A stretch of 64,000 nucleotides of DNA, from positions 64,058 through 128,057 of the forward strand of contig CAYRKM010000002.1 of NCBI GenBank assembly GCA_964425075.1. The letters run 5' to 3'. The notes beneath the pieces are model-generated. The model saw only the letters and a program-made list of their open reading frames with translations. It did no database searches and was not told where the DNA came from. This DNA comes from an uncultured Gammaproteobacteria bacterium. GTDB taxonomy: Bacteria > Patescibacteriota > Microgenomatia > Levybacterales > GWA1-39-11. This document shows, piece after piece, positions 62-51,083 of this stretch (within the stretch, counting starts at the first letter, position 1; every line of letters starts with the position of its first letter). The position numbers and the translations under genes were made by a program.

Positions 62-805
62 ATGAGTAAAACAGCCATTATTATTCTCGTTGTTGGAATC
101 CTTATTTTAGGTGGTATTGGAGCAACTATTTTTGTTTTGAATCAACCACAAGACACTCGTTCTAGAGCTTCAAATCCAACTCCCGCCCCAGTAATACCTA
201 CAACAACTACTGCACCATCAATTTCTCCATCACCAAGTACCCTTGTCACTCCAACTGGCGGAATTGGCGGAGGATCAGCGCAACAATCAACTTGCGCCAC
301 TCCTACTTCAGCTCAAAATGTTTTAGTAGAATACCCGGGATGTGAAGGGGATAATTGTCTATTTACTCAAGCAAGCTGTACTTGGGACCCAAATAATGAT
401 GCTACAACATACAATCTTACTGTTACTGAAGTTGAAACAGGAAGTGTCGTTAGAAATGAGTCAATTCCTAATTCTACTACCAAAGTTTTGTTTCCAGTTA
501 CCCAGGGGAGAACTTATAAATGTGATATAAGCGTTGCAAATTCCTGTGGTAACGTCAGCGCTGTATCATCTGACCAATTACTTTGTGAAGCCGACGCGAT
601 TATTCCTACAGCAACACCTACTGTTGCTACCACTCCAGCCCCTACAGCGTCCGCAACAGCAACTATTGCACCAACTACTGCTCCGACTGTAGTACCAACA
701 ATAACACCAACCCCACCAATAGTTGGAGGACTTACTCCAACACTTAGTGTCTTTGGTGTTGTTTTGATTTTAATTATTGGTGGGATAGTATTCTTAGCGC
801 TTTAA
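62..805 (+). CDS. hypothetical Pro/Thr-rich surface protein with a hydrophobic helix at each terminus
   Basis: 247-aa ORF. N-terminal TM-like IIILVVGILILGGIGATIFVL, P/T/A-rich linkers, a Cys-containing middle module, and C-terminal TM-like VFGVVLILIIGGIVFLAL. No family recognised. Confidence 0.6.
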   Translation: MSKTAIIILVVGILILGGIGATIFVLNQPQDTRSRASNPTPAPVIPTTTTAPSISPSPSTLVTPTGGIGGGSAQQSTCATPTSAQNVLVEYPGCEGDNCLFTQASCTWDPNNDATTYNLTVTEVETGSVVRNESIPNSTTKVLFPVTQGRTYKCDISVANSCGNVSAVSSDQLLCEADAIIPTATPTVATTPAPTASATATIAPTTAPTVVPTITPTPPIVGGLTPTLSVFGVVLILIIGGIVFLAL

Positions 806-820
806 CTAAATTAGTTTTTT

Positions 821-1747
821 ATGGACCCGCAAACACAACAACCAACTTTTCAGCAAACTAATGGGTCTTTTGTGGACCCGACACAAAGAGGCACAAGTTT
901 CTTTAAGAATAAATTATTAATTTTAGTAATAATCTTAATTGTCGCCTTGGGTGCCATTGGTGGACTTTGGTTCATTCTAAGGGGGCAGTCACAAAACACT
1001 GCTAAGACACCGTCGGAGGAACAAAATGTGGTACTTGCAACAATTGGAACGACTAAAATCACAAAGGATTATGTTAGAAACATTGCCCTTGAATCATACG
1101 TTCCTACCGCAATTACAAATGATGTAATAAAACAGCAATTAGATATTGCTATTGAGAGAGTTCTTCTTGAGAAAGAGGCTTTAAAGAAAAACATAGTTTT
1201 GCCAAAAAATGTAAGTAAGTCTGAATACTATAGCTTGCTAAAAAATAAGGTAACTGAGGGGCAAATTCTTTCTGTTGAGGAGCAGGATATTAGTTGGTGG
1301 ATTCCCCCAACACCTGACTACGAACAACGCCCTGAATTTGCAGAACAAAGGAGCGTGCAGCAAGAAATGGCAAATGAAATTGAAAGAAGACTTGCGAATG
1401 ACGATGATCCACTTACAGTGGCTAAAGATATGATCGTTAAGTATCCTGTTTTTGCAAATATTTTGGGTTATAACGGACAGATTGTAAAACAAATTGATCA
1501 GTCCACAACTTCAGCTTCAAGAACTGTACAATATGATGCAATTGATGCAGAAAAGCCCTTTTTTAACCTTTTATACTCAATGGGCTCTAATGAAATAAGA
1601 AGTGGTATCTGGGAAAATGGTTCAGGTGGAGCAGTAATAAAGACAGGCACTGTTACAAGTGGCGCAAAAATTGATTATGCCAAGTGGCTTGCTGACCAAA
1701 TAAAACTTCAAGTCAAATACAACACCGAGGAGATTTCAAAATTATGA
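821..1747 (+). CDS. hypothetical membrane-anchored extracytoplasmic protein (weak SurA/PrsA N-terminal-domain resemblance)
   Basis: 308-aa ORF with one N-terminal TM helix (LLILVIILIVALGAIGGLWFIL). It starts 16 nt after the upstream ORF. The resemblance is weak and by eye only. Confidence 0.55.
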   Translation: MDPQTQQPTFQQTNGSFVDPTQRGTSFFKNKLLILVIILIVALGAIGGLWFILRGQSQNTAKTPSEEQNVVLATIGTTKITKDYVRNIALESYVPTAITNDVIKQQLDIAIERVLLEKEALKKNIVLPKNVSKSEYYSLLKNKVTEGQILSVEEQDISWWIPPTPDYEQRPEFAEQRSVQQEMANEIERRLANDDDPLTVAKDMIVKYPVFANILGYNGQIVKQIDQSTTSASRTVQYDAIDAEKPFFNLLYSMGSNEIRSGIWENGSGGAVIKTGTVTSGAKIDYAKWLADQIKLQVKYNTEEISKL

Positions 1748-2988
1748 AAAAACTACTTTTCCTATCGTCAAGTTTTTTGTTCCTATTTCTGCTAATTGCG
1801 TTCCCGCCAAAAACCGACGCACAAAATTTGGCTAACTGCTTAAAGATGAATGTTAATATTCAGGCAACTAATTGGCCAGGAGGAACAGTGAATGTGAGTT
1901 GTGCTGGGGACAATGGACCAAGTGGTTGTGTGGGAAGCTCAAATAGTGGGACACCAGGACAAACAGTACCGCTGGATAAATGTAGCTGTCCACCTTATGC
2001 TGATGGTTGTCTTCAGGCTTCATTTCCTGCTCAATGCACAGAAGTGATTAGTGGACCACGATGTGGAACGAATGGAAATGTAATTGATCCAACAATTACC
2101 GTAAATTGTCCAGAACAAAAGAAAGAGGAACCCAAATGCACAGTTGGTGAAGTTTGTGGAGCTAACGAATGTAGTACTATAAATTGTAATAAAGCATACC
2201 AAAGAAAACGAGATAAGGACTGTAATTGTGTTATAGATCAAAGTACTCAAGTTGATGATAATTCATGCACTCAAGCAGTTACTTGCCCAACACCACCAAC
2301 AACAACACCGACAGTTACAACAACAACTACGCCTCCTGTTACTACAACAACTCCACCAGTGACTACTACAACGCCCCCTGTGAGCCCAACGCCACCATTT
2401 AATGAAACCATGTGTAAGTGCGAAAATATAGAATTTACTCCGATTACATTGGGGCAAAAAACAACAATAACAGCCTTTGGGAAAGTAGAGGGGACTGATA
2501 CTCAATTTGCTAAAATTCCGAGCTTTAATTTTATATTTTATGCAGGAACTGACACGAGCGCGACTGCAATACAGCGTCAAACAGTTGCCGCAACGCAAAT
2601 TGAAAATACTGTTACAAAAGCTCGCTATAAAGCTGTGTGGGAACTCTTAATTCCTTCCAATCTAGATGCTTCCAAAATTTATCGTATTCAAGCAAAGCCA
2701 ACTTGTGTCAAGAAAACTGCTGCAATTGCTCCACCAATTAACCCCACCTCAGCAGTTTTGGCTGCAAAGGATGAAAACACAGGATTTTTTGCTCAACTTG
2801 CAAGATTCTTTGCAAATCTTTTTGGAGGCTCAAAAGATAGCACTTCTGAAGAAGCAACAGTTCAGGATACAGCATCAATACAATCCCAACAATCAAATCT
2901 TCAGATAGGTACATTCCAACCCTTAATTGCAACAAAACAGTCGGACGCGAACAACTGTTCCTTCATTAGGCTAGAATTCGCAAAATAA
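1744..2988 (+). CDS. secreted Cys-rich protein with Thr/Pro-rich linker (hypothetical)
   Basis: ATGA start/stop overlap with the upstream ORF. Signal-peptide-like N-terminus ending KTDAQ, many Cys in the first 180 aa, and a TTTPPVTTTTPPV linker. Confidence 0.6.
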   Translation: MKKLLFLSSSFLFLFLLIAFPPKTDAQNLANCLKMNVNIQATNWPGGTVNVSCAGDNGPSGCVGSSNSGTPGQTVPLDKCSCPPYADGCLQASFPAQCTEVISGPRCGTNGNVIDPTITVNCPEQKKEEPKCTVGEVCGANECSTINCNKAYQRKRDKDCNCVIDQSTQVDDNSCTQAVTCPTPPTTTPTVTTTTTPPVTTTTPPVTTTTPPVSPTPPFNETMCKCENIEFTPITLGQKTTITAFGKVEGTDTQFAKIPSFNFIFYAGTDTSATAIQRQTVAATQIENTVTKARYKAVWELLIPSNLDASKIYRIQAKPTCVKKTAAIAPPINPTSAVLAAKDENTGFFAQLARFFANLFGGSKDSTSEEATVQDTASIQSQQSNLQIGTFQPLIATKQSDANNCSFIRLEFAK

Positions 2989-7660: not shown

Positions 7661-7808
7661 CCGTATTCATTTTAAACAAGAACATCCCTTTATTTCAAGG
7701 AAATTTTGATATTATTATAAATACATCTAGCCAAGCATATCATTTGTGCTAAAATGTAACCTAATTTTAAGTGCTTTCTAAAAATAATGAAAATACGATT
7801 ATTACACC

Positions 7809-10800
7809 TTGAGTATTATGGAGACTTTACATTCCGGTTTTGATCATCCTCCCGTTGGTCCTGCTCCACATCCTGATTCTTCAGGTAGACCCGTCACCCA
7901 CCCACTTCCTGGCGAGCTAGATGGGGAAGGAATGCTTGATCCAACATCTTTGGATTTCTGGCGAAATCTTCATGCTAACCTTACAGGCTTTATAAGCAAG
8001 AACTATCCCTTTTCAGATTTCCTTAAGAATTTCGATAGTGAGAAAGGGAAAGTGGGTCGCACACATTCAAATGGCGATACAAACGCCACATACGCATACC
8101 TTAATGCAATTTATAAACAGCGTTCATTCTCGCATCCCGGCCATCCTACTCTTGAGCAGCATATCGTCTCGCAATTCACACCTCCTACAGATGACCCCGA
8201 CTTTGCTGAAATTGTTGAAGAAACCCGCTCTCTTATTAGACAGCGTTTTCCAGAACATCAGCTTCCTAGAACGACAAGTCTTGTCAAGCTCCAAGATCCG
8301 GAATTTTGGAGCGAATTTGAGGATGAGCTTTCAAAAACTCCTTCGAGTTCAATATTTGCGGATTTTTTAAAAGGAGGAGGTGGCCTTTCTGAAGACGGTA
8401 GTCAGATGCAGGGAAAGTATCATGATGTCTGGCTTGATATATACGATCCTCGGGGTAGAACTGAATTTAGAAATGCATATAAGGAACAAACAGGAAGAGA
8501 TATAGATACTGATTCTGCAAGAGACGCTCAGAGGATTTTCTTCGAAGTAGCACCAGCACGTATAAAAGCACAGCTTATTAAGAGATATCCGAGAATTTTT
8601 AGTGGATTTGCAGTAGAGTGGGTAGGAAATTCTCAATTACCAAAAGCTGCCCAGGCTGTCATTAACACTCTCGGGTGGTTAGGTGAAGATAACCGAAAAA
8701 AAATACTTGACGTACTTTCGAAATATGTGCATATAGAAACAAGTAGTACTTCGGGTTTTGATTTTTCTGCTGAAGATACTAGCATTATTCTTGGACAAGC
8801 AGCAGAACAATCAGAAGTTGTAGCAGCAGAAGTTGGTCCGCCAACACTCGAAACTATTATTCGAGACGCAACTAATACTTTTCAGCTTGTTGAACAAGAA
8901 AAGTTGGATAATGGGAATTCTGAAAATGAACAACTGTCAAGTGAGCTAACAGCTGCCCTTGAAACATCCTATCTTTACCCAACACTTCGTAATGTTTTAT
9001 ATAAACCTTTCGCACTTTTTTGGTCAAAATATCTGGAGACTCATGGTGGGTCCTCTGTTCCCGAAGATGAAATGAGAAGTTTTCTTGACACATATGCACA
9101 TAATGAAATTGCTCAAACATCTCTATCGCCCGAAGAGCAGCAAATGCTTGAGCGTCTTAAAAAAAATGTTTTTTCCACTATTTTTAGTGAATTTATAGAA
9201 ATTGCAAATTACTCTTCTCAAATTAATCACTTCAGGGAAAGAAGCATCGACGGGAAAGCAAAGCATCTGTTTTTTCATCAGGTTGAGGGAATTAAGCATC
9301 TTGTCGAAAAAGGCGCCGGAATTTTAGCTGATGAACCAGGAACCGGCAAAACAGTGACCCTTGCGCTCGCAGCATTAAATCGAGTTGACCAAAAATTTCG
9401 AGAACCTGGAAAAATAGCAAGGGTGCTAGTTGTTGGATCAAAAACTGTTAATAACAACTGGGAGGAAGAACTTGAAATGCATGTTGCGCCAGGTGATGTC
9501 GATACAGTAAATTTCAATTCTGACGAACTTGCACAGTTAAGCCAGGCAAAACGCCTTGAAATAATGGCACAAAGATTGAAAAATCCTACAGCGGATAGAC
9601 AAGTTTTGCTTGTCAATTACGATCTGTTTCGCAATTCATTTTTTCAGGAACTCCTTCATTCTGCAGGAATTGACTGTACAATAATTGATGAAGCTCATAA
9701 TGTAAAATCGCGTTTTATGGATTCTATTGCTGAGCATAACGACGACACGTCCCATAATGCTCGACTTGCAAAACGCACAACAAATCTTTATAGATTTCTT
9801 CTTTCCAACCCGAATATGGATGTTTATTTGGGTACTAGCACTCCCTTCGTCAAAGAATTAATAGAGCCGCTTATCATGGGTCACCTGGTCGATAGGTGGA
9901 GTCTTCCAATTGACCGGGTTTCAGCTTTAAGGGAGGATCCTGCTGGAGCAAATTTGGCACTTCGTGAAGTAATGATTCGGCGACGAAAGGATGCAATCAG
10001 CGATATCCCCCCAAAAGACACAGACTTTATACCAGTAGACTTAAGCCTACTTAGTGCTGCGGAACGCTCGGAGCTTGTTTCATTGGGCCTTGATATAGAA
10101 AGAGCCGATGAAAGCTCTTTCAGAAGATTTTTTTCCATGTTGTCTATTGAAGCTCAAGCAAAAATGCCCTGGCTTATTGAGAAAATAAACGAGTTAACAT
10201 CTGATGGAAGAAAGGTAGTTGTTTTTACTCCATTCGTTAATGACCAGGAAAGACTTACAGCCTCAATAAGTACGAAGGCTATTGCAAAGCGACTTATTGA
10301 TTCAGGAATTACCTCTGTTGGAGTTCTTGATGGAACTTTAAGTGAAAGCGAAAAACTTGCTGTTCAAAGAGATTTTCATGACCCGAATGGGGTAAGAGTT
10401 TTGGTAGGTAATTATCAAACGGCAGGCGAATCAATTACACTTAATTCGCCTTTCAATAGAGCAACTGAAGTAATTATACTCGTTGCACCAAACACAATAA
10501 GTAGATACATTCAAGCAATTGATAGAGTGCATAGAATCGGACAAGATGAGAAGGTTACTATTCACGTGCCTTTTCTTACGGAAGACCCTATCGCAAGGCC
10601 AGACGGAACATATGACAGACGAATTGTTAGTCGAATGCTTAGAGAACTTTCACTCTTTAATGCTGTTGTAGATGGTTTATTTTTTGTTGAAGCTGCAGAT
10701 TATTACGATGAAATTAGACGGGGAAAAAACGGAAACTCAGAACCAAGAACCGCTCTTGAAAGTGGACAAACAGTTCGTTTGGATACAGAACAGAAGCCTC

Positions 10801-12245
10801 CTGCTGCTACTAAAAAAAGGGGCTTAACTCGGGATGTTTTTGACCAAAACACTGACGGAGCAATAGTACTACCAACAAGCAGAGAGGTAAATTTAAACAG
10901 TATTGGCATAAATCACACACGACATCACCAAATAGACAGAGAGGAAGCTTTGGCAATTACAGATTACTTCGACTCAGTGAGTCAATACCCTCTCCTTACA
11001 GTTGAGCAAGAACGTATAGCATTTAGATATCTAACTGAGGGAAAATCTGTCGCACAACTTCGTGATGATGGAGCATTTCTTGCGGCAAATCCTCGTAGCA
11101 CTGCAAAAATGCTTGCTGTACTTTCCGATAGTCGCTCCGTTAGAGATGTACTTGTTGCCTGTAATTTGAGACTCGTTGCCTCAATAGCAAATAGGTACAA
11201 AGGAAGACTTCCTTACACTGACCTGCTCCAGGAGGGAAATATTGGATTAATTAAGGGAATTGACGATTTTGACCCTGAGCGTGGATTAAAGCTTTCAACA
11301 TATGCAACCTGGTGGATTAAGCAATCAATAAGGCGTGCTATTGCTAATACGTCCCGAACTATTGACTTGCCTGTACACATGCATGAAATGGTCACAAAAA
11401 TGGTGCGTGTTTCAAATGAATTTTTTAGTAAACACCAGCGCTATCCATCTATAGAGGAGCTGGTTTCAGAAGGGTTTACTATATCCCAAGTTAACACAGC
11501 TATGCGCATAGCACGACTTGGAATTTCCAACCCCTCATCTCTTGATAGAACAATAGACGATGATGGTGAAACCACAATCGGGTCATTTGTTTCGGACGAA
11601 GGTGATCTTGAAGAAGAAACTATAGCCGCGATGGAAGAGGCTGAGCAAAGTCATATCGTTGGGCGTGCACTTTTATCTTTAAGCGAACGGGAACAGTTGG
11701 TGCTTACTCTTAGATTCGGGCTTGATGGTTCTGGCACTAGAACCCTTGAACAGGTTGGTAAAGAAATTGGTGTGACAAGAGAAAGAGCACGACAAATAGA
11801 AGTTAGTGCCCTAAAAAGACTTCGAGTAAATACCGGGCTTAGGGAGGCATACGATGGAGATTCCCCAAGTTTGCTTTGGTCAAGGGAAGTCTTGCCTACA
11901 AACGTATTGCCTCTTAGACCAGGGCCAATAGACATTGAGAGGGTCTCAGCAATCTCACAAGCTCAAGAAGTAGAAAGGTTGGAGGAGGAGAAAAACAGTC
12001 TTGAATTTGGCAGACAAGTTGTGGAACAAATAAAAATGGTACCTGATATATGGAATGCTTTAACTGATAGAGAGAAGACGCTTTTGACTCTTTATTTTAA
12101 AGGCACATTTGACCACAACACTACTAAAAGTAGACTTTCAAAAATCTTTGGCATAACCGAACAAGAGCTGTCTGTTTACATCGAGTATTCTGTTGCTTCT
12201 CTAGCCAAACACGTTGGTATGACATCCTCTGAGCTTCCTTCTTGA
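7809..12245 (+). CDS. fusion protein: unknown N-terminal region + SNF2-family ATPase + complete sigma-70 + extra C-terminal region-4-like HTH
   Basis: Single 1478-codon ORF with no internal stop. The track start is TTG at 7809, and an ATG lies at 7818. SNF2 motifs: LADEPGTGKT, IIDEAHNVK, QAIDRVHRIGQ. Sigma motifs: YPLLTVEQE, LLQEGNIGLIKGIDDFD, TYATWWIKQSIRRAI, TIDLPVHMHE, VTRERARQIEVSALKRLR. Confidence 0.85.
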   Translation: MSIMETLHSGFDHPPVGPAPHPDSSGRPVTHPLPGELDGEGMLDPTSLDFWRNLHANLTGFISKNYPFSDFLKNFDSEKGKVGRTHSNGDTNATYAYLNAIYKQRSFSHPGHPTLEQHIVSQFTPPTDDPDFAEIVEETRSLIRQRFPEHQLPRTTSLVKLQDPEFWSEFEDELSKTPSSSIFADFLKGGGGLSEDGSQMQGKYHDVWLDIYDPRGRTEFRNAYKEQTGRDIDTDSARDAQRIFFEVAPARIKAQLIKRYPRIFSGFAVEWVGNSQLPKAAQAVINTLGWLGEDNRKKILDVLSKYVHIETSSTSGFDFSAEDTSIILGQAAEQSEVVAAEVGPPTLETIIRDATNTFQLVEQEKLDNGNSENEQLSSELTAALETSYLYPTLRNVLYKPFALFWSKYLETHGGSSVPEDEMRSFLDTYAHNEIAQTSLSPEEQQMLERLKKNVFSTIFSEFIEIANYSSQINHFRERSIDGKAKHLFFHQVEGIKHLVEKGAGILADEPGTGKTVTLALAALNRVDQKFREPGKIARVLVVGSKTVNNNWEEELEMHVAPGDVDTVNFNSDELAQLSQAKRLEIMAQRLKNPTADRQVLLVNYDLFRNSFFQELLHSAGIDCTIIDEAHNVKSRFMDSIAEHNDDTSHNARLAKRTTNLYRFLLSNPNMDVYLGTSTPFVKELIEPLIMGHLVDRWSLPIDRVSALREDPAGANLALREVMIRRRKDAISDIPPKDTDFIPVDLSLLSAAERSELVSLGLDIERADESSFRRFFSMLSIEAQAKMPWLIEKINELTSDGRKVVVFTPFVNDQERLTASISTKAIAKRLIDSGITSVGVLDGTLSESEKLAVQRDFHDPNGVRVLVGNYQTAGESITLNSPFNRATEVIILVAPNTISRYIQAIDRVHRIGQDEKVTIHVPFLTEDPIARPDGTYDRRIVSRMLRELSLFNAVVDGLFFVEAADYYDEIRRGKNGNSEPRTALESGQTVRLDTEQKPPAATKKRGLTRDVFDQNTDGAIVLPTSREVNLNSIGINHTRHHQIDREEALAITDYFDSVSQYPLLTVEQERIAFRYLTEGKSVAQLRDDGAFLAANPRSTAKMLAVLSDSRSVRDVLVACNLRLVASIANRYKGRLPYTDLLQEGNIGLIKGIDDFDPERGLKLSTYATWWIKQSIRRAIANTSRTIDLPVHMHEMVTKMVRVSNEFFSKHQRYPSIEELVSEGFTISQVNTAMRIARLGISNPSSLDRTIDDDGETTIGSFVSDEGDLEEETIAAMEEAEQSHIVGRALLSLSEREQLVLTLRFGLDGSGTRTLEQVGKEIGVTRERARQIEVSALKRLRVNTGLREAYDGDSPSLLWSREVLPTNVLPLRPGPIDIERVSAISQAQEVERLEEEKNSLEFGRQVVEQIKMVPDIWNALTDREKTLLTLYFKGTFDHNTTKSRLSKIFGITEQELSVYIEYSVASLAKHVGMTSSELPS
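9264..10583 (+). other. SNF2/Swi2-type helicase core (N-lobe plus Helicase_C lobe) inside the fusion ORF
   Basis: aa ~486-925. Walker A LADEPGTGKT (nt 9324-9353), DEAH box IIDEAHNVK (nt 9681-9707), motif III-like LGTSTPF, motif VI QAIDRVHRIGQ (nt 10512-10544). Confidence 0.8.
10938..11828 (+). other. sigma-70 regions 1.2, 2, 3 and 4 inside the fusion ORF
   Basis: aa ~1044-1340. By eye this aligns block for block with RpoD-type sigma factors, including the region 2.4 and 4.2 recognition helices. Confidence 0.85.
12036..12218 (+). other. second region-4-like HTH at the C-terminus of the fusion ORF
   Basis: aa ~1410-1470. LTDREKTLLTLYFKG...SRLSKIFGITEQELSVYIEYSVASLAKHV parallels the upstream LSEREQLVLTLRFGL...LEQVGKEIGVTRERARQIEVSALKRL. 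Confidence 0.55.
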
Positions 12246-12281: not shown

Positions 12282-13505
12282 ATGGCTGTAGATTTTTTTA
12301 GATACTACGTAAATCAAGAATTAATAAAACAAGCATCCGAGCTTAGCTCCAAAATCTCACAACTCTCCCTTGGTGGTCAACAAGAAGAAGCAGTGAGAAG
12401 AATGAGAGAAGCGAGACTTATATTGGAGAAAGTAAGAGGAGTTGATGCTCTAACAAACCAATTTCTTGAAGGACTCGAAGGCTTAGGAATTGAGCAACCT
12501 CCAATCAGTATTTTCTCATCCCCACCGGTCTCGCTTGAGCCCGGGATACCTTCTACAATTCCTGAAGTCACAGAACCCGAAATCCCTTTAGCATCAGGCT
12601 TCGAGACACTTCCTGATGAAAAAAAACATGCGGCAGAACCTGAGACAGATAATGCACAACTAAAACTAGATGACTTGCCTTTAGTTAAAAATGAAAGAAG
12701 AGCTCGTCGTGATTTGGGTGAAATAGAAGAACGTGTTGCATTTGCGCTTTTTGCAATTAATAGAGAGGGTAGTAATTTTGCTTTTCCTACCTATAGAGAA
12801 GTTGCTGAAGCAGTTTATGAAGGCAACACCGTAAATACAAATTATGTCAAAATGTCCGTAGCCAGAATTTTTGAAAAATTTGAGACTTTTAGTAGAAATC
12901 CTGATAATTCTTTACCTGTGCTTCAGAATTTCTACGACTGGCTTGGAACCATTTCTCAATACTCACAGGGGGAAATTCCTATTGAGGTGTTTGAGTCTAT
13001 TGCCTTACGTAAAATATCTTTTGAAGAATTCGAGGCACTTCTGAAAAATGCAGCTCCCCAAGAACCCTCCGGAAGTGATGAGTCTTCATATTTAACTTTA
13101 CCAACAACCGACACGAAAGATAACGAAACTTGGGAAGAAGAGAACCCACAGCCGATTCTTAACTTTCCTGAGATAGACATGCTTTGTCAGGTTATGCTAA
13201 GTGTTCGCAAGGATTTACTTAAGGAAGCTGGACTTGGGTGGCAGGACAGTGACTTTATGGAAATTGAGGGCATTGCAGAAAGACTAGGAATACAGGAGGG
13301 AGGTTCTGATATGGAAGCGCTGTTGCAGTCACTTAGACAAAAATTGGCAATTTTCCTACAAGCAAAGGAGGCCACTCTTGTTGTAAATGCAGACAATGAA
13401 GCAGCTCTAGCGTTATTATTCTTACTTTCAGATATAAGCTCTCAAGAACATCTCGATAAACTATTTGCTTCATTTGTAGCTCAAGCTGCAATAAACATGC
13501 ATTAA
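12282..13505 (+). CDS. hypothetical acidic protein with a sigma4/LuxR-like HTH segment
   Basis: 407-aa ORF 36 nt downstream of the fusion gene on the same strand. aa ~146-201 (nt 12717-12884), GEIEERVAFALF...PTYREVAEAVYEGNTVNTNYVKMSVARIFEKF, fits an HTH pattern. The rest is unrecognised. Confidence 0.6.
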   Translation: MAVDFFRYYVNQELIKQASELSSKISQLSLGGQQEEAVRRMREARLILEKVRGVDALTNQFLEGLEGLGIEQPPISIFSSPPVSLEPGIPSTIPEVTEPEIPLASGFETLPDEKKHAAEPETDNAQLKLDDLPLVKNERRARRDLGEIEERVAFALFAINREGSNFAFPTYREVAEAVYEGNTVNTNYVKMSVARIFEKFETFSRNPDNSLPVLQNFYDWLGTISQYSQGEIPIEVFESIALRKISFEEFEALLKNAAPQEPSGSDESSYLTLPTTDTKDNETWEEENPQPILNFPEIDMLCQVMLSVRKDLLKEAGLGWQDSDFMEIEGIAERLGIQEGGSDMEALLQSLRQKLAIFLQAKEATLVVNADNEAALALLFLLSDISSQEHLDKLFASFVAQAAINMH

Positions 13506-17452: not shown

Positions 17453-17959
17453 TTATTGAACAATCAAAGTTCCTACCATTCCCATTGCTCGATGATTACC
17501 AACGCTACAGTAGTATTCGAAACTTCCTTTTTTAGTAGCCTTAAATTTAATAGTTTCAGAACTTCCGGCCTGTAAAACTTTGGTTCTTGCACTAAATTCA
17601 TCAATCACCCAGTCATGTGTACCCTGAGCATTAGTAAACACTATTTCAACAATATCTCCCTCATTTACCGTAATAGTTTTGGGATCAAACTTAAAAGCGC
17701 TTCCTGTAACTTTAAAGGATTTAACTTCACCCTCAGCCATATCTCCATTTGACTCAGACTGTAATTCTTGGGCAACTGTAGGCTCGGCTTGAATATCAGT
17801 TGTGGTTTGCGTAGAAGGTTTTTGTGTTAAAAAGTAGGCTATTATTCCAATGACTGCAACCGCAGCAACAATTCCAATAATGATAGTGGTGCTCATTCCT
17901 TTCTGTGAATTTCTGAATTTCATAATAATTAATATGCCATTCTTTGAAAAAAATGTCAA
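17453..17959 (-). CDS. membrane-anchored cupredoxin (type-1 blue copper protein)
   Basis: N-terminal TM helix, then a cupredoxin-like domain with ligand pattern GTHDW ... YYCSVGNHRAMGM (His, Cys-x4-His-x3-Met). Confidence 0.75.
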   Translation of the reverse strand: MTFFSKNGILIIMKFRNSQKGMSTTIIIGIVAAVAVIGIIAYFLTQKPSTQTTTDIQAEPTVAQELQSESNGDMAEGEVKSFKVTGSAFKFDPKTITVNEGDIVEIVFTNAQGTHDWVIDEFSARTKVLQAGSSETIKFKATKKGSFEYYCSVGNHRAMGMVGTLIVQ

Positions 17960-17961
17960 GC

Positions 17962-19482
17962 CTAGAACCCTGGGAAGTAGTCGGTTACAATGTTCTGCCT
18001 TGAAACACCAAGACCCAAAAGCATTTTTCTATATCCATCTACCATTGAGATAGGCCCTGATAAATAAAACGTTCTGTTTTTATAGTCATTTACATATTTC
18101 TTAAGGTTTTCTTTGTTTAATCTTCCCACCCCACCTTTCCAATCAGGAGGAATATTCTTTTCATCAGTCAAGCAATAAATAGTAGTTATTCCTAGTTTTT
18201 TTGCCTCATTAAATAATTCTTTATAAACAATTTCTTCTTCTCGCCCATTGGAATAGAGCAAAACAATATCTCTTTTCTCATTGGAGTCAACTAGATATTT
18301 AATAATGCTTCGAAAAGGGGTTATTCCAATTCCTCCTGCAATAAATACCAATTTCTTGTTCTTTTCACTTGGTAAAATAAAGTCTCCAGTCAATTGGTCC
18401 GCTGTTATTTTTTCCTTTTCCCTAAATTCAAAGAGCCTTTGCTTAAAACTACTAGACTTTTCACTATATCGTACACCCAGTCTTAAAATATCCTCAGTCG
18501 GAGATGATGCGATAGTAAAAAATCTTCTGTTACCCCTTATGTCAGTTTTTAATTGAGGAACCGTCCACTCAAAATACTGCCCAGCTTTAAAAACCAAATT
18601 TTTTGGCTTTTCAAAAACAAACTCATAAGTGTTCTTGGCAATCTCTTTTTTTTCAATAAACGGAACTATGTATTTTTGTCTTTTGCTAATCAAAAATGAA
18701 AACAAATTTCCTATTACAAGCGAAAGTTCAGGTGAGGAAGCAATGAAACCGAAGGAAAACGGAGTTGAATATAGCGCTCCTACAAAAACCCCATATAAAA
18801 TCTGTAACCTTCTTGTTGGAGGAGTCGTATATGGTTCGGTGAGCATAATTGTAGCAAAAAAAACAGTTGGTAAAGCCATAAAAAACTCCTGAGTGGAGTC
18901 GCCCACGCTATTTACGCGAAACAATCCAAACAGAATATAAAACAAAAGTGAAGGGAGTATAAAGGAAAATAAAAAAACAAATCTTCTAATCTTTCTAACA
19001 ACTAACAACCCTAAGACAATAGTTGGGAATAACAAAAATGGATGTGCCACCCACCAAATGCCGCCTCCCAAATTTAAAAGACTTAAAACAACCAAGGTGA
19101 ATGCAACTGGGTTGAAGATATGGTGTTTTTTGTATGCAAAAATGTATTTTGAACCCATAGCTATAACTATGGCCATTAGATAAACTTTAACGTCTAAAAG
19201 TGATTGAAGGGGAATGAGTAAGAAAAAGAGAATAAGCCCCGTTATGTAGGCAGACTCAGAATTTATTGTAGCTTTGAATAATTTTGCAAAAAGGAAATTC
19301 ACAAAAAAAGTTACCCCAAAAAGAAATATGAGAGAAAACAATAGAGAAATTCCACCATCAGGCAAAATTCCCAGAAAGCCCAAAATTATTGAATAGAATG
19401 CTAAAGCAAGAAGTCCATACATCACGAGCCTATACATCGTGATGGAGTTGAGCAACTGGTCAATGCGTTGAAGGACAAACAT
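17962..19482 (-). CDS. polytopic membrane domain (RnfD/NqrB-like, tentative) fused to an FNR-type FAD/NAD(P)-binding reductase
   Basis: 506 aa. The N-terminal ~270 aa is multi-TM with HIFNPVAF and MLTEPYTTPPT. The C-terminal half has RFFTIASSP (RxYS-type FAD motif) and LVFIAGGIGITPF (NAD(P) motif). It lies 2 nt upstream of the cupredoxin gene. Confidence 0.65.
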   Translation of the reverse strand: MFVLQRIDQLLNSITMYRLVMYGLLALAFYSIILGFLGILPDGGISLLFSLIFLFGVTFFVNFLFAKLFKATINSESAYITGLILFFLLIPLQSLLDVKVYLMAIVIAMGSKYIFAYKKHHIFNPVAFTLVVLSLLNLGGGIWWVAHPFLLFPTIVLGLLVVRKIRRFVFLFSFILPSLLFYILFGLFRVNSVGDSTQEFFMALPTVFFATIMLTEPYTTPPTRRLQILYGVFVGALYSTPFSFGFIASSPELSLVIGNLFSFLISKRQKYIVPFIEKKEIAKNTYEFVFEKPKNLVFKAGQYFEWTVPQLKTDIRGNRRFFTIASSPTEDILRLGVRYSEKSSSFKQRLFEFREKEKITADQLTGDFILPSEKNKKLVFIAGGIGITPFRSIIKYLVDSNEKRDIVLLYSNGREEEIVYKELFNEAKKLGITTIYCLTDEKNIPPDWKGGVGRLNKENLKKYVNDYKNRTFYLSGPISMVDGYRKMLLGLGVSRQNIVTDYFPGF

Positions 19483-23553: not shown

Positions 23554-24708
23554 CTAACGACCAATAAACCTTCTGAAGTATACAAATAAAACTCCTAGTC
23601 CAAGCGTCATCGCTACAAATGATATTAACCAACCAATTATTGGAATCCAAGTTATTACCCACAACACAGGAACTCCAACAAAAGAGGCTAGTGGTAGAGA
23701 GACTTTGTATGTCTTTTTTTTATTGTAAGAAAGAATCTCGTGTCCTAAGTAAATACCTGCAAGCATTTTACTAAGCATTAATGCAATAATCCAAATAAGT
23801 CCCAATAAAACAGCAATGGGGATACCTATGAGTGTGAATAGAAGAAATATCACCAAAATTGGAGTAAGGAAAAGCACAACAAGTCCCCAACCAAAAAGAG
23901 ATATTTTATCATGCTTAATACCCTCAACTAACTCTTGAATTAGTTTTGGAAGGAAAAATGCCAACAGTATCGCAAAAAGAGTAAACGAAACCAAGGACAT
24001 GATTTGTCCCACTAACCATACTAAAGTAAAAAACTTGGCGAATTCAGAAGCTTGCTTGTTCTGTGTCTGCAACTCAATCTGCTTATAGTTAGTCCTTCCT
24101 GAAACCGTAGCGTTGTCTAAAATTTCTGCTTTTTGTGGTGAACGATAGGAGAAATTCCCTTTTATAAGTGCGTCATCAGCAAGAGTCACTTTTTGAGACT
24201 CTACATCTACTTTTCCATTAACAGTGCCTGTTACATATAAATCTTGCATGACACCTGATATGTCTCTGGAAACAACACCCATAATGTTTACAGATTGTCC
24301 CGCAGACATAATCTCACCATTTATTCTTCCGTTTTTCTCTATGATTAACTCTTGCCCCAAAAAAGCAACATTTCTTTCAACAGTACCGGCAATAATTAGT
24401 GTTTGCCCAGCAAATCTAACATCACCATTGACCGTTCCCTCAATTCGTAAAGTTTGCCCAGCACATAGTACGTCCCCTTGGACAACGCCTACAACCTTTA
24501 AACTTTGCCCGGCACAAAACACGTCGCTTGCTACATTTCCATTAACTGTTACATTTTGTCCCGTACCAATAAGAGTCTCATTGATAATTACGTCTCGTGG
24601 AACAGTAATATTGTCACCAGAACGTACGGAAATGGCATGCGAGGTTGAAGGAAAAAAAACAAAAAGGAGAACAAACGTTATCACAAAATACTGAATCAAA
24701 CGTTTCAT
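23554..24708 (-). CDS. membrane protein with bactofilin-like beta-helical repeats (hypothetical)
   Basis: Signal-like N-terminus. About 8 tandem ~19-aa repeats of the form V.G.V.GDV..AGQ.L.I.G, then a C-terminal block of about 4 TM helices. Confidence 0.55.
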   Translation of the reverse strand: MKRLIQYFVITFVLLFVFFPSTSHAISVRSGDNITVPRDVIINETLIGTGQNVTVNGNVASDVFCAGQSLKVVGVVQGDVLCAGQTLRIEGTVNGDVRFAGQTLIIAGTVERNVAFLGQELIIEKNGRINGEIMSAGQSVNIMGVVSRDISGVMQDLYVTGTVNGKVDVESQKVTLADDALIKGNFSYRSPQKAEILDNATVSGRTNYKQIELQTQNKQASEFAKFFTLVWLVGQIMSLVSFTLFAILLAFFLPKLIQELVEGIKHDKISLFGWGLVVLFLTPILVIFLLFTLIGIPIAVLLGLIWIIALMLSKMLAGIYLGHEILSYNKKKTYKVSLPLASFVGVPVLWVITWIPIIGWLISFVAMTLGLGVLFVYFRRFIGR

Positions 24709-26093: not shown

Positions 26094-26459
26094 ATGACAA
26101 AACTTTACATAGGAAATCTTCCTTATTCTGTAACCAATGATGATCTTACAAATCTTTTTGGAGAATATGGAACTGTTACCTCAGCATCCGTTGTGACCGA
26201 CAGGGAAACCGGTCGAAGCAAGGGATTTGGATTCGTAGAAATCGAAGAAGATGATAAAGCTCTTGAAGCTATCGAAAAACTCGATAAATCATCTTTCCAA
26301 GAAAGAACAATCTTTGTTTCTGTTGCTAGACCTCGCGAAGATAGACCATCAAACGGTGGTGGATATTCAGGCGGAGGCGGAGGCAGAAGCTTTGGGAATG
26401 ACAGACGTGGTGGTGGAGGAAGTGGCGGATTTAGACGCGACGACCGACGCGGTCACTAA
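26094..26459 (+). CDS. RRM-type RNA-binding protein with Gly/Arg-rich tail
   Basis: RNP2 LYIGNL and RNP1 KGFGFVE motifs, with a C-terminal GGGGRSFGNDRRGGGGSGGFRRDDRRGH tail. Confidence 0.85.
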   Translation: MTKLYIGNLPYSVTNDDLTNLFGEYGTVTSASVVTDRETGRSKGFGFVEIEEDDKALEAIEKLDKSSFQERTIFVSVARPREDRPSNGGGYSGGGGGRSFGNDRRGGGGSGGFRRDDRRGH

Positions 26460-32688: not shown

Positions 32689-33141
32689 CTACATCGAAAG
32701 TCTTTCAATTGAGGTCTGGTTATCTGAGAAGAATAGTTTTGTTGAAGGTTGAATTCTTAATTTTTTCAATTCATTAAGCCCAAAAAACTGCAATATGCGT
32801 CCTTCAGCTCTTTGCATGTTATTAACATGCTTATCGCTTAATCTTGCATGGAATAAATATTGGACTACGTCATTATGAACGACACTTGAAAGGAAAGTAA
32901 CTCTATCTAGTTTTATTTTAGTTTCACGCTCAACCTCTTGAAGAATTGTTTTTTCAGCCGATGTATCTTTAAGCTTGAATTTTTTAATAAAATGCCACGC
33001 ATCACTATTTTGTGGCTCAAGGATATTTTCTTGCTGCAAAAGAAGAACTTTACCCTTATATGTAAGAAGAATGAGGCATAAGCCTATTGTGGATGACACT
33101 AAAGATAGTATAGCACTGTGGGAGACTAAAAATTTGAGCAA
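32689..33141 (-). CDS. hypothetical protein (possible degenerate Nudix fold)
   Basis: 150 aa. N-terminal hydrophobic helix. QEVERETKI weakly recalls the Nudix-box REVxEETG. Confidence 0.4.
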   Translation of the reverse strand: MLKFLVSHSAILSLVSSTIGLCLILLTYKGKVLLLQQENILEPQNSDAWHFIKKFKLKDTSAEKTILQEVERETKIKLDRVTFLSSVVHNDVVQYLFHARLSDKHVNNMQRAEGRILQFFGLNELKKLRIQPSTKLFFSDNQTSIERLSM

Positions 33142-40383: not shown

Positions 40384-41244
40384 ATGGCTGAAACAAAAGC
40401 ACCCAAAACTACAAAACCAACCGAGGGAATTACAAGAAAACCCGATGGAACTATCGAGCTTACTGTTGTTATTCCTTGGTCAACGGCTTTAAAGGCACGA
40501 GAGGAAATAGAGGAGGATCTTCTTAAACACGTACAAGTTGCAGGCTTTAGAAAAGGTGCCGCTCCCAAAAATATTGCTAAAGGAAAACTAAATCCGGAGT
40601 TGGTTAGGGAAGAAATGCTTAAAAAGCTTATCGGAAAAGCATATAACGAAGCAGTAGAAAAGGAAAAACTTGTTCCTATTATTTCCCCAAGAATTCATAT
40701 AGACGTCTTTGAGGAAGGAACTGATATTGTATTTACAGCGGAAACTTGCGAAGAGCCTCAGGTTGAGCTTGGCAAATATAAAGACGACATACAGAAAGTG
40801 ACAGCGAAAGGTAAAATTATTGTACCCGGAAAAGAAGAAGAAAAGCCCTCCGTAGACGAGATACTTACCGCAGGTATTTCAGGAACAAAAATACAAATTC
40901 CCAATGTATTGGTAGAAAATGAAATCTCAAGACTTTTATCTCAAATGCTTGATGAGCTGAAGAAAATTGGCCTTACGCTTGATCAATATTTAGAATCTCG
41001 CAAACTTAATCCTGAACAACTTAGAGAAGAGTATAAAAATAAAGCTGAAAATGACCTTAAATTAGAATTCTTTTTAAGAAAAGTTGCAGATAGTGAGAAA
41101 ATAACTGTTGAAAAAGAGGATATTGAAAAGGCCCTAAACACTATAGAAAATCCAAAAGAACGTGAAGAAATTATGAAAAACCCATATCTTGTCGCCTCAA
41201 TTATAAGACAGCAAAAAACCCTCGATTTTCTTACGAAACTTTAG
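40384..41244 (+). CDS. tig: trigger factor, short form lacking a recognisable PPIase domain
   Basis: The ribosome-binding signature GFRKGAAP sits in the N-terminal domain. The protein is 286 aa in total and goes straight into the helical C-terminal arm region. Confidence 0.75.
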   Translation: MAETKAPKTTKPTEGITRKPDGTIELTVVIPWSTALKAREEIEEDLLKHVQVAGFRKGAAPKNIAKGKLNPELVREEMLKKLIGKAYNEAVEKEKLVPIISPRIHIDVFEEGTDIVFTAETCEEPQVELGKYKDDIQKVTAKGKIIVPGKEEEKPSVDEILTAGISGTKIQIPNVLVENEISRLLSQMLDELKKIGLTLDQYLESRKLNPEQLREEYKNKAENDLKLEFFLRKVADSEKITVEKEDIEKALNTIENPKEREEIMKNPYLVASIIRQQKTLDFLTKL

Positions 41245-44618: not shown

Positions 44619-45869
44619 ATGGATGATTTAGCACCAAATGACCACAAAAGACTTGGCCGCGAACTTGGTCTTTTTACGTTTTCCGACACTGTAGGAAAAG
44701 GACTGCCACTTTTTACCCCAAAAGGCTCAGTTATTAGACGCGAGTTAGAGCGTTTTATTGTTGACGAGGAGTTAAAGCGAGGCTACCAACACGTATATAC
44801 CCCTGACATTGCAAAGCTTGAATTGTATAAAAAATCAGGACATTATCCCTACTACAAAGACTCTATGTATGCCCCAATCACTATAGAGGATGAGGAATTT
44901 ATGCTTCGTCCCATGACTTGCCCTCATCATTTTGAGCTTTATCTTACTCGTCCACATAGCTACAAAGAACTTCCAATGAGAATCGCAGAGCTTGCAAAAC
45001 TGTATAGATTTGAGCAATCAGGTGAGCTAATGGGCCTGCAACGCGTACGGACATTTTGCCTAGCTGATGCCCATATTATTACCTCGCTTATAAATGTTGA
45101 AGAGGAAATCCAAAGCGTCCTTGATCTTATTGAATTTATTGCAAATACATTCAAACTCGAACAAGGAAAAGACTATCGTTATCGATTATCTTTGGGGGAC
45201 AGGAAGGACAGTAAGAAATACTTTAAAGATGATGCTTCTTGGGATATGGCAGAGAAAACTTTAAAAAAGGTATTAACCGACAGAAAAGCTCACTTTGTTG
45301 AAGCTGAAAATGAAGCAGCGTTTTATGGTCCAAAAATTGATATTCAAATGAAAAACACTAATGGTAAAGAGGATACAGCCTTTACTGTCCAGCATGACTT
45401 TGTTATGCCAAAACGTTTTGAATTAAGATATATAAATGAAAAAGGAGAAGAAGAGCAACCTGTTGTCATACACCGCTCATCAATTGGTGCAATTGAGCGT
45501 GTGATGGCTTTTTTAATAGAACACTATAAAGGCGCTTTCCCAATGTGGTTATCCCCTGTCCAGGCGGTTGTAATGGCAGTTTCTGATAAGTTTGATGCAT
45601 ACGCAAAAGAAGTATTTGAGGAGTTAAAAAGCAATGGGATTAGGGTTGAATTCGACAATTCTAATAACACGCTTGGTAACAAAATCCGTGAGGCTACTTT
45701 ACAAAAAGTACCCTACATGTGTATAATAGGCGGTCAGGAAGAACAAGAGTTTAAAGAAAGTGGAAAAAGAGTAATTACAGTAAGAACCCGAGAAGGAAAG
45801 GATCTGGGCAAGAAAGAACTTGACGAATTTATCAAGGGATTAAAAAAAGAAATTGAGACCAAACAATAA
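44619..45869 (+). CDS. thrS: threonyl-tRNA synthetase, catalytic core plus anticodon-binding domain only
   Basis: The protein starts at the DHKRLGRELGLF motif. It has FMLRPMTCPHH and class II motifs and is 416 aa, with no TGS or editing domains. TGTTAGAAT ends 6 nt before the ATG. Confidence 0.85.
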   Translation: MDDLAPNDHKRLGRELGLFTFSDTVGKGLPLFTPKGSVIRRELERFIVDEELKRGYQHVYTPDIAKLELYKKSGHYPYYKDSMYAPITIEDEEFMLRPMTCPHHFELYLTRPHSYKELPMRIAELAKLYRFEQSGELMGLQRVRTFCLADAHIITSLINVEEEIQSVLDLIEFIANTFKLEQGKDYRYRLSLGDRKDSKKYFKDDASWDMAEKTLKKVLTDRKAHFVEAENEAAFYGPKIDIQMKNTNGKEDTAFTVQHDFVMPKRFELRYINEKGEEEQPVVIHRSSIGAIERVMAFLIEHYKGAFPMWLSPVQAVVMAVSDKFDAYAKEVFEELKSNGIRVEFDNSNNTLGNKIREATLQKVPYMCIIGGQEEQEFKESGKRVITVRTREGKDLGKKELDEFIKGLKKEIETKQ

Positions 45870-47115: not shown

Positions 47116-47138
47116 CCTCCCAAACGGGAGGTTTTTTT
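47116..47138 (+). terminator. intrinsic terminator after rplT
   Basis: CCTCCC-AAAC-GGGAGG followed by T7. Confidence 0.8.
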
Positions 47139-47148
47139 GTTTTCAAAC

Positions 47149-47553
47149 ATGAAGCATATTGAAGAAGTCGCAGTTGTGGTTATCGTAAACAGTAATGGAG
47201 AAGTGCTTGTAACTCAAAGGGATGATCCATCTACCCCTATAATTCATCTGAAGTGGCAACTACCAGGTGGAGGCAAAGAGAAAAACGAAACGCTTGAGGA
47301 AACATGCATCAGAGAGGCAAAAGAGGAAACTGGATTAACAGTTAAACTTGTTACAAAAACTCCTCATAAAATTACTCAAGAGCTTCCAAGAAGAAATTTG
47401 TTGCTTTGTGGTTTTAAGGCCATACCAACTTCTGGTACAATTAATACTGAACTTGATAAAGAAACGAGGGACGCAAAGTGGTTATCTCGAGATGAGATAA
47501 ATAAACTCGATTTGCTACCAAAAACAATTGAAATGATTGATGCGTGTTATTAA
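47149..47553 (+). CDS. Nudix hydrolase
   Basis: Nudix box GGGKEKNETLEETCIREAKEETG. I use the ATG at 47149 because the track start lies inside the terminator. Confidence 0.8.
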   Translation: MKHIEEVAVVVIVNSNGEVLVTQRDDPSTPIIHLKWQLPGGGKEKNETLEETCIREAKEETGLTVKLVTKTPHKITQELPRRNLLLCGFKAIPTSGTINTELDKETRDAKWLSRDEINKLDLLPKTIEMIDACY

Positions 47554-50622: not shown

Positions 50623-51083
50623 TGGCAGTTCTTGCAACACTTTGTTATCTTCAACAAAACGGTAAGACGTTAATGATATTTCCAACTGGTAAAAAAGATT
50701 CCCATTATAATGAAAAGTGGAATGGAGTAGGGGGGAAATTTAAGAGTGGTGAAACCCCTGAAGAATGCGCAATTCGCGAAATAAAAGAGGAAACAAGCCT
50801 TGCTGCAAAAAATCCCCAATTAGCAGGCATTCTTACTTTTCCTAAAATGACAGGAGGAGAAGATTGGTATGTCTTTGTATTTGTAATAAAAGAATTTTCT
50901 GGCAAACTAAAAGCATCAAAGGAAGGAAAACTTCAGTGGTTTGCGAACGAAGAAATTTTAAAACTTAATTTATGGGAGGGGGATTATATTTTCCTTCCAT
51001 GGTTATTTGCAGGTAAATTCTTCTTAGGGGAGTTTGTTTATGACGACGGCAAACTAAAAAACCATTCAGTTACCTTTTATTAG
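50622..51083 (+). CDS. Nudix hydrolase (MutT-like)
   Basis: Nudix box GGKFKSGETPEECAIREIKEETS. The ATG overlaps the pheT TGA by 1 nt (TGATG). Confidence 0.8.
   Translation: MAVLATLCYLQQNGKTLMIFPTGKKDSHYNEKWNGVGGKFKSGETPEECAIREIKEETSLAAKNPQLAGILTFPKMTGGEDWYVFVFVIKEFSGKLKASKEGKLQWFANEEILKLNLWEGDYIFLPWLFAGKFFLGEFVYDDGKLKNHSVTFY

Follow-up and report, generated by a model that had tools for sequence, protein, structure and literature searches.

In sigma-70-dependent transcription, promoter opening is in the textbook account independent of ATP, and the known motors of bacterial RNA polymerase (RNAP), namely RapA, HelD and Mfd, are separate proteins that work away from the sigma factor or compete with it. 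Mot1/BTAF1 is a eukaryotic Snf2 ATPase that takes the promoter-recognition factor TBP off DNA, and XPB is a superfamily 2 (SF2) translocase of double-stranded DNA (dsDNA) that works on the DNA beside the polymerase. The defence systems MZA, DISARM, BREX and Zorya combine Snf2 helicases, methyltransferases and sigma-like helix-turn-helix (HTH) proteins. Here we analyse a gene in a 64,000-nucleotide (nt) stretch of contig CAYRKM010000002.1 (assembly GCA_964425075.1, from an uncultured bacterium), hereafter the window, whose product joins a Snf2-family ATPase to an apparently complete sigma-70-type module in one polypeptide. A preliminary description of this DNA had proposed this covalent fusion and knew of no published counterpart, and both points stand: the fusion is genuine, being kept in about 25 divergent, independently assembled homologues, and full-text literature searches, whose coverage leaves out much of the subscription literature, returned no account of it. 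Nor does any curated NCBIfam, Pfam or PADLOC model span Snf2 and sigma together. The architecture is genuinely new; what it does is a matter of inference. As a conserved natural fusion it is a Rosetta-stone sign that a Snf2 translocase and a promoter-recognition subunit act on the same complex, and it hints at ATP-powered control of bacterial transcription initiation.

An uninterrupted gene for a Snf2 motor and a sigma-70 module

A single forward open reading frame (ORF) occupies 7809..12245 (+) and encodes 1478 amino acids (aa) from a TTG codon; as the preliminary description had it, the frame is uninterrupted, since both the ORF list and the translation are free of internal stops. The ATG at 7818 is the likely start because its 1475-aa product is identical to a database protein (P0001, on an NCBI contig of 232,462 bp), and we therefore place the fusion gene at 7818..12245 (+), with 1475 codons and a stop codon, keeping the in-frame TTG at 7809 as an alternative start. 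The motifs lie exactly where they had been reported, both in the Snf2 part (LADEPGTGKT at 9324-9353, IIDEAHNVK at 9681-9707, LGTSTPF at 9828-9848 and QAIDRVHRIGQ at 10512-10544) and in the sigma part (region 1.2 at 10962-11012, region 2 at 11163-11342, region 3.0 at 11358-11387 and region 4.2 at 11742-11825), and Pfam profile searches support both the SNF2 and the sigma-70 domains and set their borders.

Metagenome-assembled genomes a priori contain errors by which adjacent Snf2 ATPase and rpoD genes might be merged, through a frameshift, the loss of a stop codon or chimerism in the assembly, and one unrelated match, P0158, does look chimeric, its sigma region 2 being duplicated. For the fusion itself we found no evidence of such an event. 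The architecture is continuous in over 20 clusters of below 50% identity, which come from independent samples and assemblers (NCBI, Logan, JGI and ENA), the linker is in frame in all fused clusters, and the other two forward frames are crowded with stops (75 and 159 across 7809..12245). Since the architecture recurs in about 25 independently assembled and divergent homologues, a frameshift or misassembly fails as an explanation; the chance of an artefact is close to nil, and this reading is already effectively refuted.

The Snf2-family ATPase core spans aa 481-955 (9258..10682, +) and has an intact Walker A motif (GTGKT), DEAH box, motif III (STP) and motif VI (QAIDRVHRIGQ). The Pfam models SNF2-rel_dom (aa 487-632, 56.6 bits) and Helicase_C (aa 787-908, 40.2 bits) both score over their cut-offs, so that both lobes as well as motifs I, II, III and VI, by which membership in the Snf2 family is judged, are present and intact. 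Across the 27 members of the protein family described below, G508, G510, K511, T512, D624, E625, H627, T675 and P676 are invariant, and Q899, R903, H905, R906, G908 and Q909 are nearly so. When compared by Foldseek, the predicted motor fold resembles that of Snf2h (TM-score 0.73), and also those of SMARCA4, ISWI, CSB and Mot1. To judge from these residues and the modelled fold, the motor is apparently active.

The preliminary description also implied a kinship of the motor with RapA/HepA, and this did not hold up. RapA is nominally the top NCBIfam match of the motor, but the score against the RapA equivalog model NF003426 is 41.5 bits versus a cut-off of 576, and an unfused member of the family (P0014) reaches 53.1 bits. 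When Snf2 proteins of solved structure were scored against the Snf2 profile of the family, an archaeal Rad54-like protein obtained 53 bits, the entry 8qy7 49 bits (deposited only as 'DEAD/DEAH box helicase', and which we take to be ZorD of Zorya), ISW1 45 bits and Mot1 44 bits; RapA, with 25 bits, ranked about 53rd. Nor is RapA found among the top 50 Foldseek matches of the predicted motor fold. Furthermore, the N-terminal domain of RapA is small and beta-rich, whereas that of the fusion is all-alpha. The low score and rank, the missing structural match and the dissimilar N-terminal domain lead us to regard the motor as a Snf2-family ATPase which is not a RapA orthologue.

The acidic and otherwise unrecognised N-terminal region of about 480 aa that had been noted earlier is confirmed as such. 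This domain (aa 1-480; 7818..9257, +) is all-alpha and family-specific, with 72 D+E versus 46 K+R; a Pfam search of these 480 aa gave no family match, and a comparison with the PDB revealed no relative and no HEAT-repeat match. It contains an internal repeat of about 45 aa with the motif P..FW..L..DL...F..FL...GK, copy 1 of which lies at aa 42-87 (7941..8078, +) and copy 2 at aa 158-200 (8289..8417, +); hhalign aligns copy 2 with copy 1 at a probability of 96% (E 2.5e-9). By its sequence, it is a novel domain of predicted helical structure.

A linker, aa 956-1043 (10683..10946, +), joins the motor to sigma region 1.2. It is poorly conserved and mostly predicted to be disordered: about 95 aa (model residues 467-562) have a per-residue confidence (pLDDT) of 25-39 in the AlphaFold2 (AF2) model, and among homologues the linker varies in length and sequence and is the least conserved segment (mean pairwise identity 0.19). 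Sigma region 1.1 (PF03979) was undetected at E <= 0.1 in a Pfam search of the fusion protein, and the helical domain, motor and linker sit where this region would be.

The sigma-70 module itself (aa 1044-1340; 10947..11837, +) comprises regions 1.2, 2, 3 and 4 according to Pfam, NCBIfam, Foldseek and an alignment with RpoD proteins, with region 2 at 11151-11357, region 3 including the 3.2 finger at 11397-11612 and region 4 at 11667-11825 (all +). Regions 2 and 4, which decide membership in the sigma-70 family, are far over the Pfam gathering thresholds (Sigma70_r2, PF04542, aa 1112-1180, 64.5 bits versus 24; Sigma70_r4, PF04545, aa 1284-1336, 63.2 bits versus 24.1). Sigma70_r3 lies just under its threshold (aa 1194-1265, 25.1 bits versus 25.3) and Sigma70_r1_2 is weak (aa 1047-1066, 13.8 bits versus 22), but the segments of regions 1.2 and 3 align to full-length RpoD-type models (aa 1047-1337) and to sigmaA structures. 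The best Foldseek matches of the module are sigmaA chains from mycobacterial and Thermus initiation complexes, at 34-37% identity. When aligned with canonical RpoDs, that of E. coli among them, the module is seen to retain the core-binding motif, the region 2.3 aromatics (YATWW), the Q of region 2.4, the H and E of region 3.0, the acidic 3.2 finger and TRERARQIE of region 4.2, and carries an Arg at the position of E. coli T440. The sigma moiety is thus apparently competent, keeping the residues by which primary sigmas recognise -10, extended -10 and -35 elements.

These regions (1.2, 2.1-2.4, 3.0, the 3.2 finger and 4.1-4.2) follow each other in the canonical order of the group 1 and group 2 sigmas, such as RpoD/SigA, RpoS and the cyanobacterial SigB-E. 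The fusion differs from them in having about 1040 residues, made up of the novel helical domain and the Snf2 ATPase, for region 1.1, in one or more extra sigma-4-like HTHs beyond region 4, and in that its sigma evolves faster than the attached motor. The NCBIfam models of RpoD, SigA and RpoS score 213-235 bits over aa 1047-1337, but every curated RpoD, RpoS and SigB cut-off is missed (for RpoD, NF004208 234.7 versus 555, TIGR02393 RpoD_Cterm 221.3 versus 354, and NF006666 212.9 versus 572). Two marks of a primary sigma (RpoD/SigA), an equivalog score and a region 1.1, are thus not found. A sigma-only homologue search returned generic primary sigmas of many phyla as the nearest stand-alone sigmas, at 38-49% identity. 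Its top-ranked match was P0158, owing to the duplicated region 2; this is a stand-alone sigma (L093 485-1996, from an ENA assembly) unrelated to the fusion family, in which regions 2-3 occur twice (two NLRLV...PVHM blocks), either truly or through a chimeric assembly. P0152 proved to belong to an unrelated dnaG-rpoD locus.

Beyond region 4, a C-terminal extension of 135 aa (aa 1341-1475; 11838..12242, +) forms a helical domain in the AF2 model (pLDDT about 80) and contains, near aa 1414-1449 (12057-12164, +), a second sigma-region-4-like HTH in degenerate form, for which Sigma70_r4 gives 17 bits (E 0.004) when run on the tail alone. In the homologous tails of P0004 and P0007 this model scores 48.6 and 45.2 bits, over the cut-off. 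The longer tails carry HTH arrays (P0004 aa 1453-1892, corresponding to L011 5941-7260; P0007 aa 1439-2057; P0009 aa 1461-1900) with at least two sigma-region-4-like domains over the Pfam threshold as well as other HTHs, and at their extreme C-terminus a 4.2-like 'G(I/V)SRER..Q' helix is repeated.

The protein family and its history

Homologous fusions do exist in other genomes. A word-indexed search recovered one full-length homologue of the same architecture from an independent Logan assembly (P0002, 1587 aa, 46% identical), and, run with the 27-member alignment, this kind of search missed the family, so that an exhaustive hidden Markov model (HMM) search was needed. By scanning 1.84 billion cluster representatives (clusters at 50% identity) with a profile of the N-terminal domain plus the Snf2 motor, we obtained a sharply bounded family of 27 representatives scoring 466-2158 bits; the next four matches are fragments with 133-84 bits, after which come generic Snf2 proteins with less than about 83 bits. 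Four segments of the window's protein, used as phmmer queries, showed that 21 of the 27 members unite the helical domain, the motor and the sigma in a single chain, with lengths of 1183-2158 aa. Pfam detects SNF2 in 27 members, Helicase_C in 26, Sigma70_r2 in 21, Sigma70_r4 in 19, Sigma70_r3 in 10 and Sigma70_r1_2 in five. The fused count rises to 22 if the reduced sigma of P0028 (1272 aa) is included, in which regions 1.2-2 are followed directly by an extracytoplasmic function (ECF)/LuxR-like sigma-4 HTH, region 3 being absent. In JGI metagenomes, a scan detected the fusion at another three loci, namely L013, L015 and L014, the last of these on a 765-kb contig.

The members P0014, P0016 and P0022 are unfused. 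They are complete genes inside their contigs (L004 10001-13609; L005 101-3820; L006 10001-13579, also L007) and encode the helical domain and the motor followed by a non-sigma tail of about 230 aa; no sigma gene is present near them at the loci L004, L005 and L006. In a rough neighbour-joining tree of the Snf2 domain, the fused members fall into what is essentially a single clade, with the unfused ones at the base, so the motor family appears to be ancestral and the sigma to have been captured later. The basal members thus point to an uncharacterised stand-alone motor family, probably associated with RNAP. In the one large clade, a sigma-70 module running from region 1.2 to region 4.2, with one or more extra sigma-4-like HTHs, has been joined C-terminally to the motor via a disordered linker. 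The family, unfused members included, accordingly defines a new group of probably RNAP-associated motors with a new N-terminal domain, and also a new sigma architecture with supernumerary sigma-4 domains and a new partner protein, described below.

The two halves of the fusion are not equally constrained. Among 20 fused members, the mean pairwise identity is 0.50 for the Snf2 motor versus 0.34 for the whole sigma module (0.47 for region 2 and 0.42 for region 4) and 0.24 for the N-terminal domain, and in each of the 190 pairs conservation is lower for the sigma than for the motor. In several members, such as P0013, P0018 and P0005, the DNA-melting residues of regions 2.3/2.4 are degenerate.

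Possible action of the tethered motor

The reading we prefer, to which we assign a probability of roughly 45%, is that the fusion is a lineage-specific sigma of group 1/2 type in which a tethered dsDNA translocase, in the place of region 1.1, remodels or recycles RNAP-promoter complexes. The sigma moiety would dock the protein on core RNAP and on -35/-10-type promoters; the Snf2 motor, attached N-terminally to region 1.2 at the usual position of the auto-inhibitory region 1.1, would engage duplex DNA flanking the polymerase and use ATP to remodel the RNAP-DNA complex. This might take place in two modes. In the one that we favour, the motor would strip non-productive or post-termination RNAP/sigma from DNA, such release being coupled directly to the re-formation of holoenzyme, by analogy with RapA and with the action of Mot1 on TBP. 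In the other, which we rank second, the motor would feed or twist DNA and thereby aid or reverse promoter opening, in analogy to XPB in TFIIH. In either case, the coupling of initiation or recycling to ATP hydrolysis is something we infer from the architecture. If the motor does act at initiation or recycling, this would uncover a mode of transcription control so far tied only to eukaryotes, archaea or sigma-54, with a bearing on gene regulation in genome-reduced, uncultivated bacteria that have few transcription factors.

The comparisons behind this proposal hold only in part. RapA/HepA, with its release and recycling of RNAP the mechanistic analogue that we favour, is likewise a Snf2-family ATPase tied functionally to bacterial RNAP, an association which in the fusion is implied by the covalent sigma; but RapA exists apart from sigma and competes with it, whereas the motor of the fusion is covalently joined to sigma, and the novel all-alpha N-terminal domain has no likeness to the small beta-rich one of RapA. 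Mot1/BTAF1 shares the order of a helical N-terminal region followed by a Snf2 motor, is aimed at a promoter-recognition factor and is among both the structural and the profile matches. The likeness is one of analogy, since the fusion has no HEAT-repeat match, Mot1 binds TBP non-covalently, and the two belong to different domains of life and different polymerase systems. Sigma-54 with its AAA+ enhancer-binding proteins and TFIIH with XPB/Ssl2 share with the fusion the concept of a nucleoside triphosphatase coupled to promoter opening; there, however, the ATPases are AAA+ proteins and XPB and are separate polypeptides, whereas that of the fusion is of the Snf2 family and covalently attached, and an ATP requirement for opening by the fusion would be a parallel in concept only.

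Several observations weigh against the reading of a sigma with a tethered remodeller. The AF2 model has an overall confidence (pTM) of 0.41 and is uninformative on contacts of the motor with sigma or RNAP, and the flexible tether of 95 aa leaves the site of action of the motor unfixed. As the ATPase is not specifically RapA-like, the recycling analogy is drawn from architecture alone. The canonical aromatics of region 2.3 are lost in P0013 and P0018, and sigma-driven promoter melting may therefore not be family-wide. Finally, an in-frame TTG at nt 10950 (aa 1045) lies 5 nt after GAGAGGAA, which resembles a Shine-Dalgarno sequence, and exactly at the start of region 1.2; it could serve as an internal start that would give a free sigma of 431 aa. 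Similar sites occur in some homologues (in L015, an ATG after GAGGAGGAAAA), with no conserved position, and because the TTG site at nt 10950 is not kept in homologues we rejected the idea that a free sigma is made from an internal start conserved in the family.

The greater constraint on the motor, its apparent ancestry and the basal place of the unfused members would also suit a protein in which the motor is the main part, i.e. a Snf2 remodeller directed at RNAP, for which the sigma is only a docking handle for core RNAP or DNA and not a promoter-specific initiation factor. This alternative, in which the protein might for example compete with the true primary sigma or target stalled or post-termination polymerase, is a serious one. 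The degenerate melting residues of P0013, P0018 and P0005, the reduced sigma2 and sigma4-like module of P0028 and the variable C-terminal arrays of extra HTHs point the same way. However, the window's copy and most other members keep region 1.2, YATWW, the H and E of region 3.0, the 3.2 finger and TRERxRQIE, and since a mere handle would not need this full set for promoter recognition and initiation, we consider a handle-only role of the sigma possible and on the doubtful side.

If, as we prefer, the sigma moiety does serve in initiation, it may be either the housekeeping sigma of the lineage, as the preliminary description had envisaged, or an additional one. Primary sigmas are its best sequence and structural matches, the gene lies amid housekeeping chromosomal genes, there is no second sigma homologue within the 64-kb window or in 178 kb of related loci, and reduced genomes are known to carry few sigma factors; on these grounds the fusion could be the sole primary sigma, and all initiation in the lineage would then involve a tethered ATPase. 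Against this, the scores are far under the RpoD equivalog cut-offs (234.7 versus 555 and 221 versus 354), the sigma is less constrained than the motor although few proteins are normally as well conserved as primary sigmas, and the gene has an operonic partner, which is typical of regulated alternative sigmas. The relatives with an unfused motor must, moreover, have a separate primary sigma, and the sigma census covered about 6% of a genome of about 1 Mb. A sole primary sigma is therefore unlikely in our judgement. An additional, specialised sigma is somewhat more probable than the cell's only primary one, given the relaxed constraint on the sigma, RpoD scores under threshold, an operonic partner gene and relatives without the fusion, and the undetected region 1.1 and the variability of the melting-residue positions in several members lean in the same direction. 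We regard as similarly improbable the stronger proposal that the fusion is the principal initiation factor, whose opening, escape or recycling steps would be obligatorily ATP-coupled via the tethered translocase and whose dedicated regulator would be the product of the gene downstream; if true, it would be a bacterial, sigma-70-based counterpart of TFIIH/XPB or Mot1.

Neighbouring genes and chromosomal context

The operonic partner, which we call gene C, encodes 407 aa at 12282..13505 (+), 36 nt downstream of the fusion gene and on the same strand. It is 29% identical (E 5e-41) to the neighbour of the fusion gene at L001, and its homologues lie directly downstream in all nine distinct fused loci, whereas a six-frame translation search found none in the three unfused loci. 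No relative of gene C turned up in Pfam, in PADLOC or in a PDB profile search. Its product is likely to be a cognate regulator or partner of the sigma moiety, in which role it would act in the mechanism outlined above, and it is a candidate anti-sigma factor. An N-terminal helix of about 75 aa and a C-terminal region of about 110 aa are conserved among the copies, in some of which the middle module is duplicated or a winged helix (Trans_reg_C) is inserted.

On the other side, a gene A of 530-840 aa abuts the 5' end of the fusion gene in six of the nine fused loci (L003 212-2074; L009 8297-9988; L011 3-1601; L013 4787-6625; L015 87-1142; L008 1159-3678); neither the window nor L001 has it. Gene A shows a weak class-I S-adenosylmethionine (SAM)-methyltransferase signature (METTL6-like, E 2e-4), to which the L008 copy adds S1 RNA-binding domains. 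In the longer fusions, the N-terminal leaders resemble short stretches of the products of the neighbouring gene A or gene C, with the shared motif ...L.WF...GLL..L...FKGD...A..F..PE (L011 1747-1935 compared with L011 3-1601; L008 4416-4745 and 5115-5429 compared with L008 10211-11491; L014 8351-8700), which suggests that a small module is exchanged among the fusion gene, gene A and gene C. The repeat of the N-terminal domain is a separate matter: domains common to it and to genes A and C were rejected, the repeat HMMs matching family proteins only.

The combination of a methyltransferase-like gene A with a Snf2-sigma protein and gene C recalls MZA, DISARM, BREX and Zorya, and we therefore also considered a defence or mobile-element module. 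MzaA is the top match of the fusion in both NCBIfam and PADLOC and, like it, is a long protein with a C-terminal sigma-70 module; the Snf2 part weakly matches ZorD, DrmD, BrxH and DpdE, gene A with its weak methyltransferase signature is adjacent in most fused loci, and conjugation or recombinase genes occur within 10 kb in L003 and L009. However, the MzaA match is confined to the C-terminal sigma (model positions 459-703 of 726, 237.2 bits versus a cut-off of 800), the N-terminal part of MzaA remaining unmatched, and neither PADLOC nor Pfam finds the partners mzaB-E beside the fusion gene. The matches to DrmD, ZorD and BrxH are weak, generic and partial ones to the ATPase core (E 1e-5 to 1e-17 in PADLOC), with 33-35 bits versus cut-offs of 610-1500 for the NCBIfam models of DISARM, Zorya and BREX, and the partner genes of these systems were not found. 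The window contains no adjacent nuclease or effector gene and no partner gene of MZA, DISARM or BREX, and lacks gene A, as does L001; the flanking genes differ between loci and are of a housekeeping nature, and no family member is present in 50,697 phage and 72,556 plasmid records. We therefore think a defence or mobile-element role very unlikely. Membership in MZA, DISARM, Zorya or BREX was rejected, the matches being partial and generic and the partner genes not found, and so was an origin from a phage or plasmid, since those collections yield only generic Snf2 cores that are 23-27% identical.

The window is an ordinary piece of the chromosome of a reduced bacterium, with a GC content of about 38%. 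It contains 14 tRNA genes, zwf, gnd, thrS-infC-rplT-pheST, tyrS, recG, and the genes of PBP1A and pilM, a content plausibly compatible with Patescibacteria, and the neighbours of the fusion gene are zwf, gnd, gene C, an ASCH-domain gene, a tRNA gene and a gene for a major facilitator superfamily (MFS) transporter. Upstream of the fusion gene, the divergent intergenic region of 148 nt contains a promoter-like element (TAGCCA, a 16-nt spacer and TG-TAAAAT; 7728..7755, +), noted by consensus match only. This element is tentative, because the region shows no enrichment of such sites, 16 being observed versus 13.3 expected from shuffles.

Several other genes of the window deserve mention. Three housekeeping proteins are truncated in a manner typical of genome-reduced lineages: the threonyl-tRNA synthetase (ThrRS, 44619-45869, 416 aa) matches only the C-terminal two thirds of its model, the trigger factor (40384-41244, 286 aa) has the N and C domains without the peptidyl-prolyl isomerase (PPIase) domain, and PheT (48670-50622) misses about 150 N-terminal residues. 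There are three NUDIX hydrolase genes in the 64 kb (32689-33141, 47137-47553 and 50622-51083), two of which flank the pheST operon. The 506-aa product of 17453-19482 (-) has both an NQR2/RnfD-like membrane domain and an oxidoreductase NAD-binding domain, and its gene adjoins one for a cupredoxin (plastocyanin/azurin-like); such a redox pair is unusual in a small genome. No Pfam match was obtained for three consecutive ORFs at 62-2988 (+), of 247, 308 and 414 aa, while a 384-aa bactofilin-domain protein is encoded at 23554-24708 (-) and a 121-aa RRM-domain protein at 26094-26459 (+).

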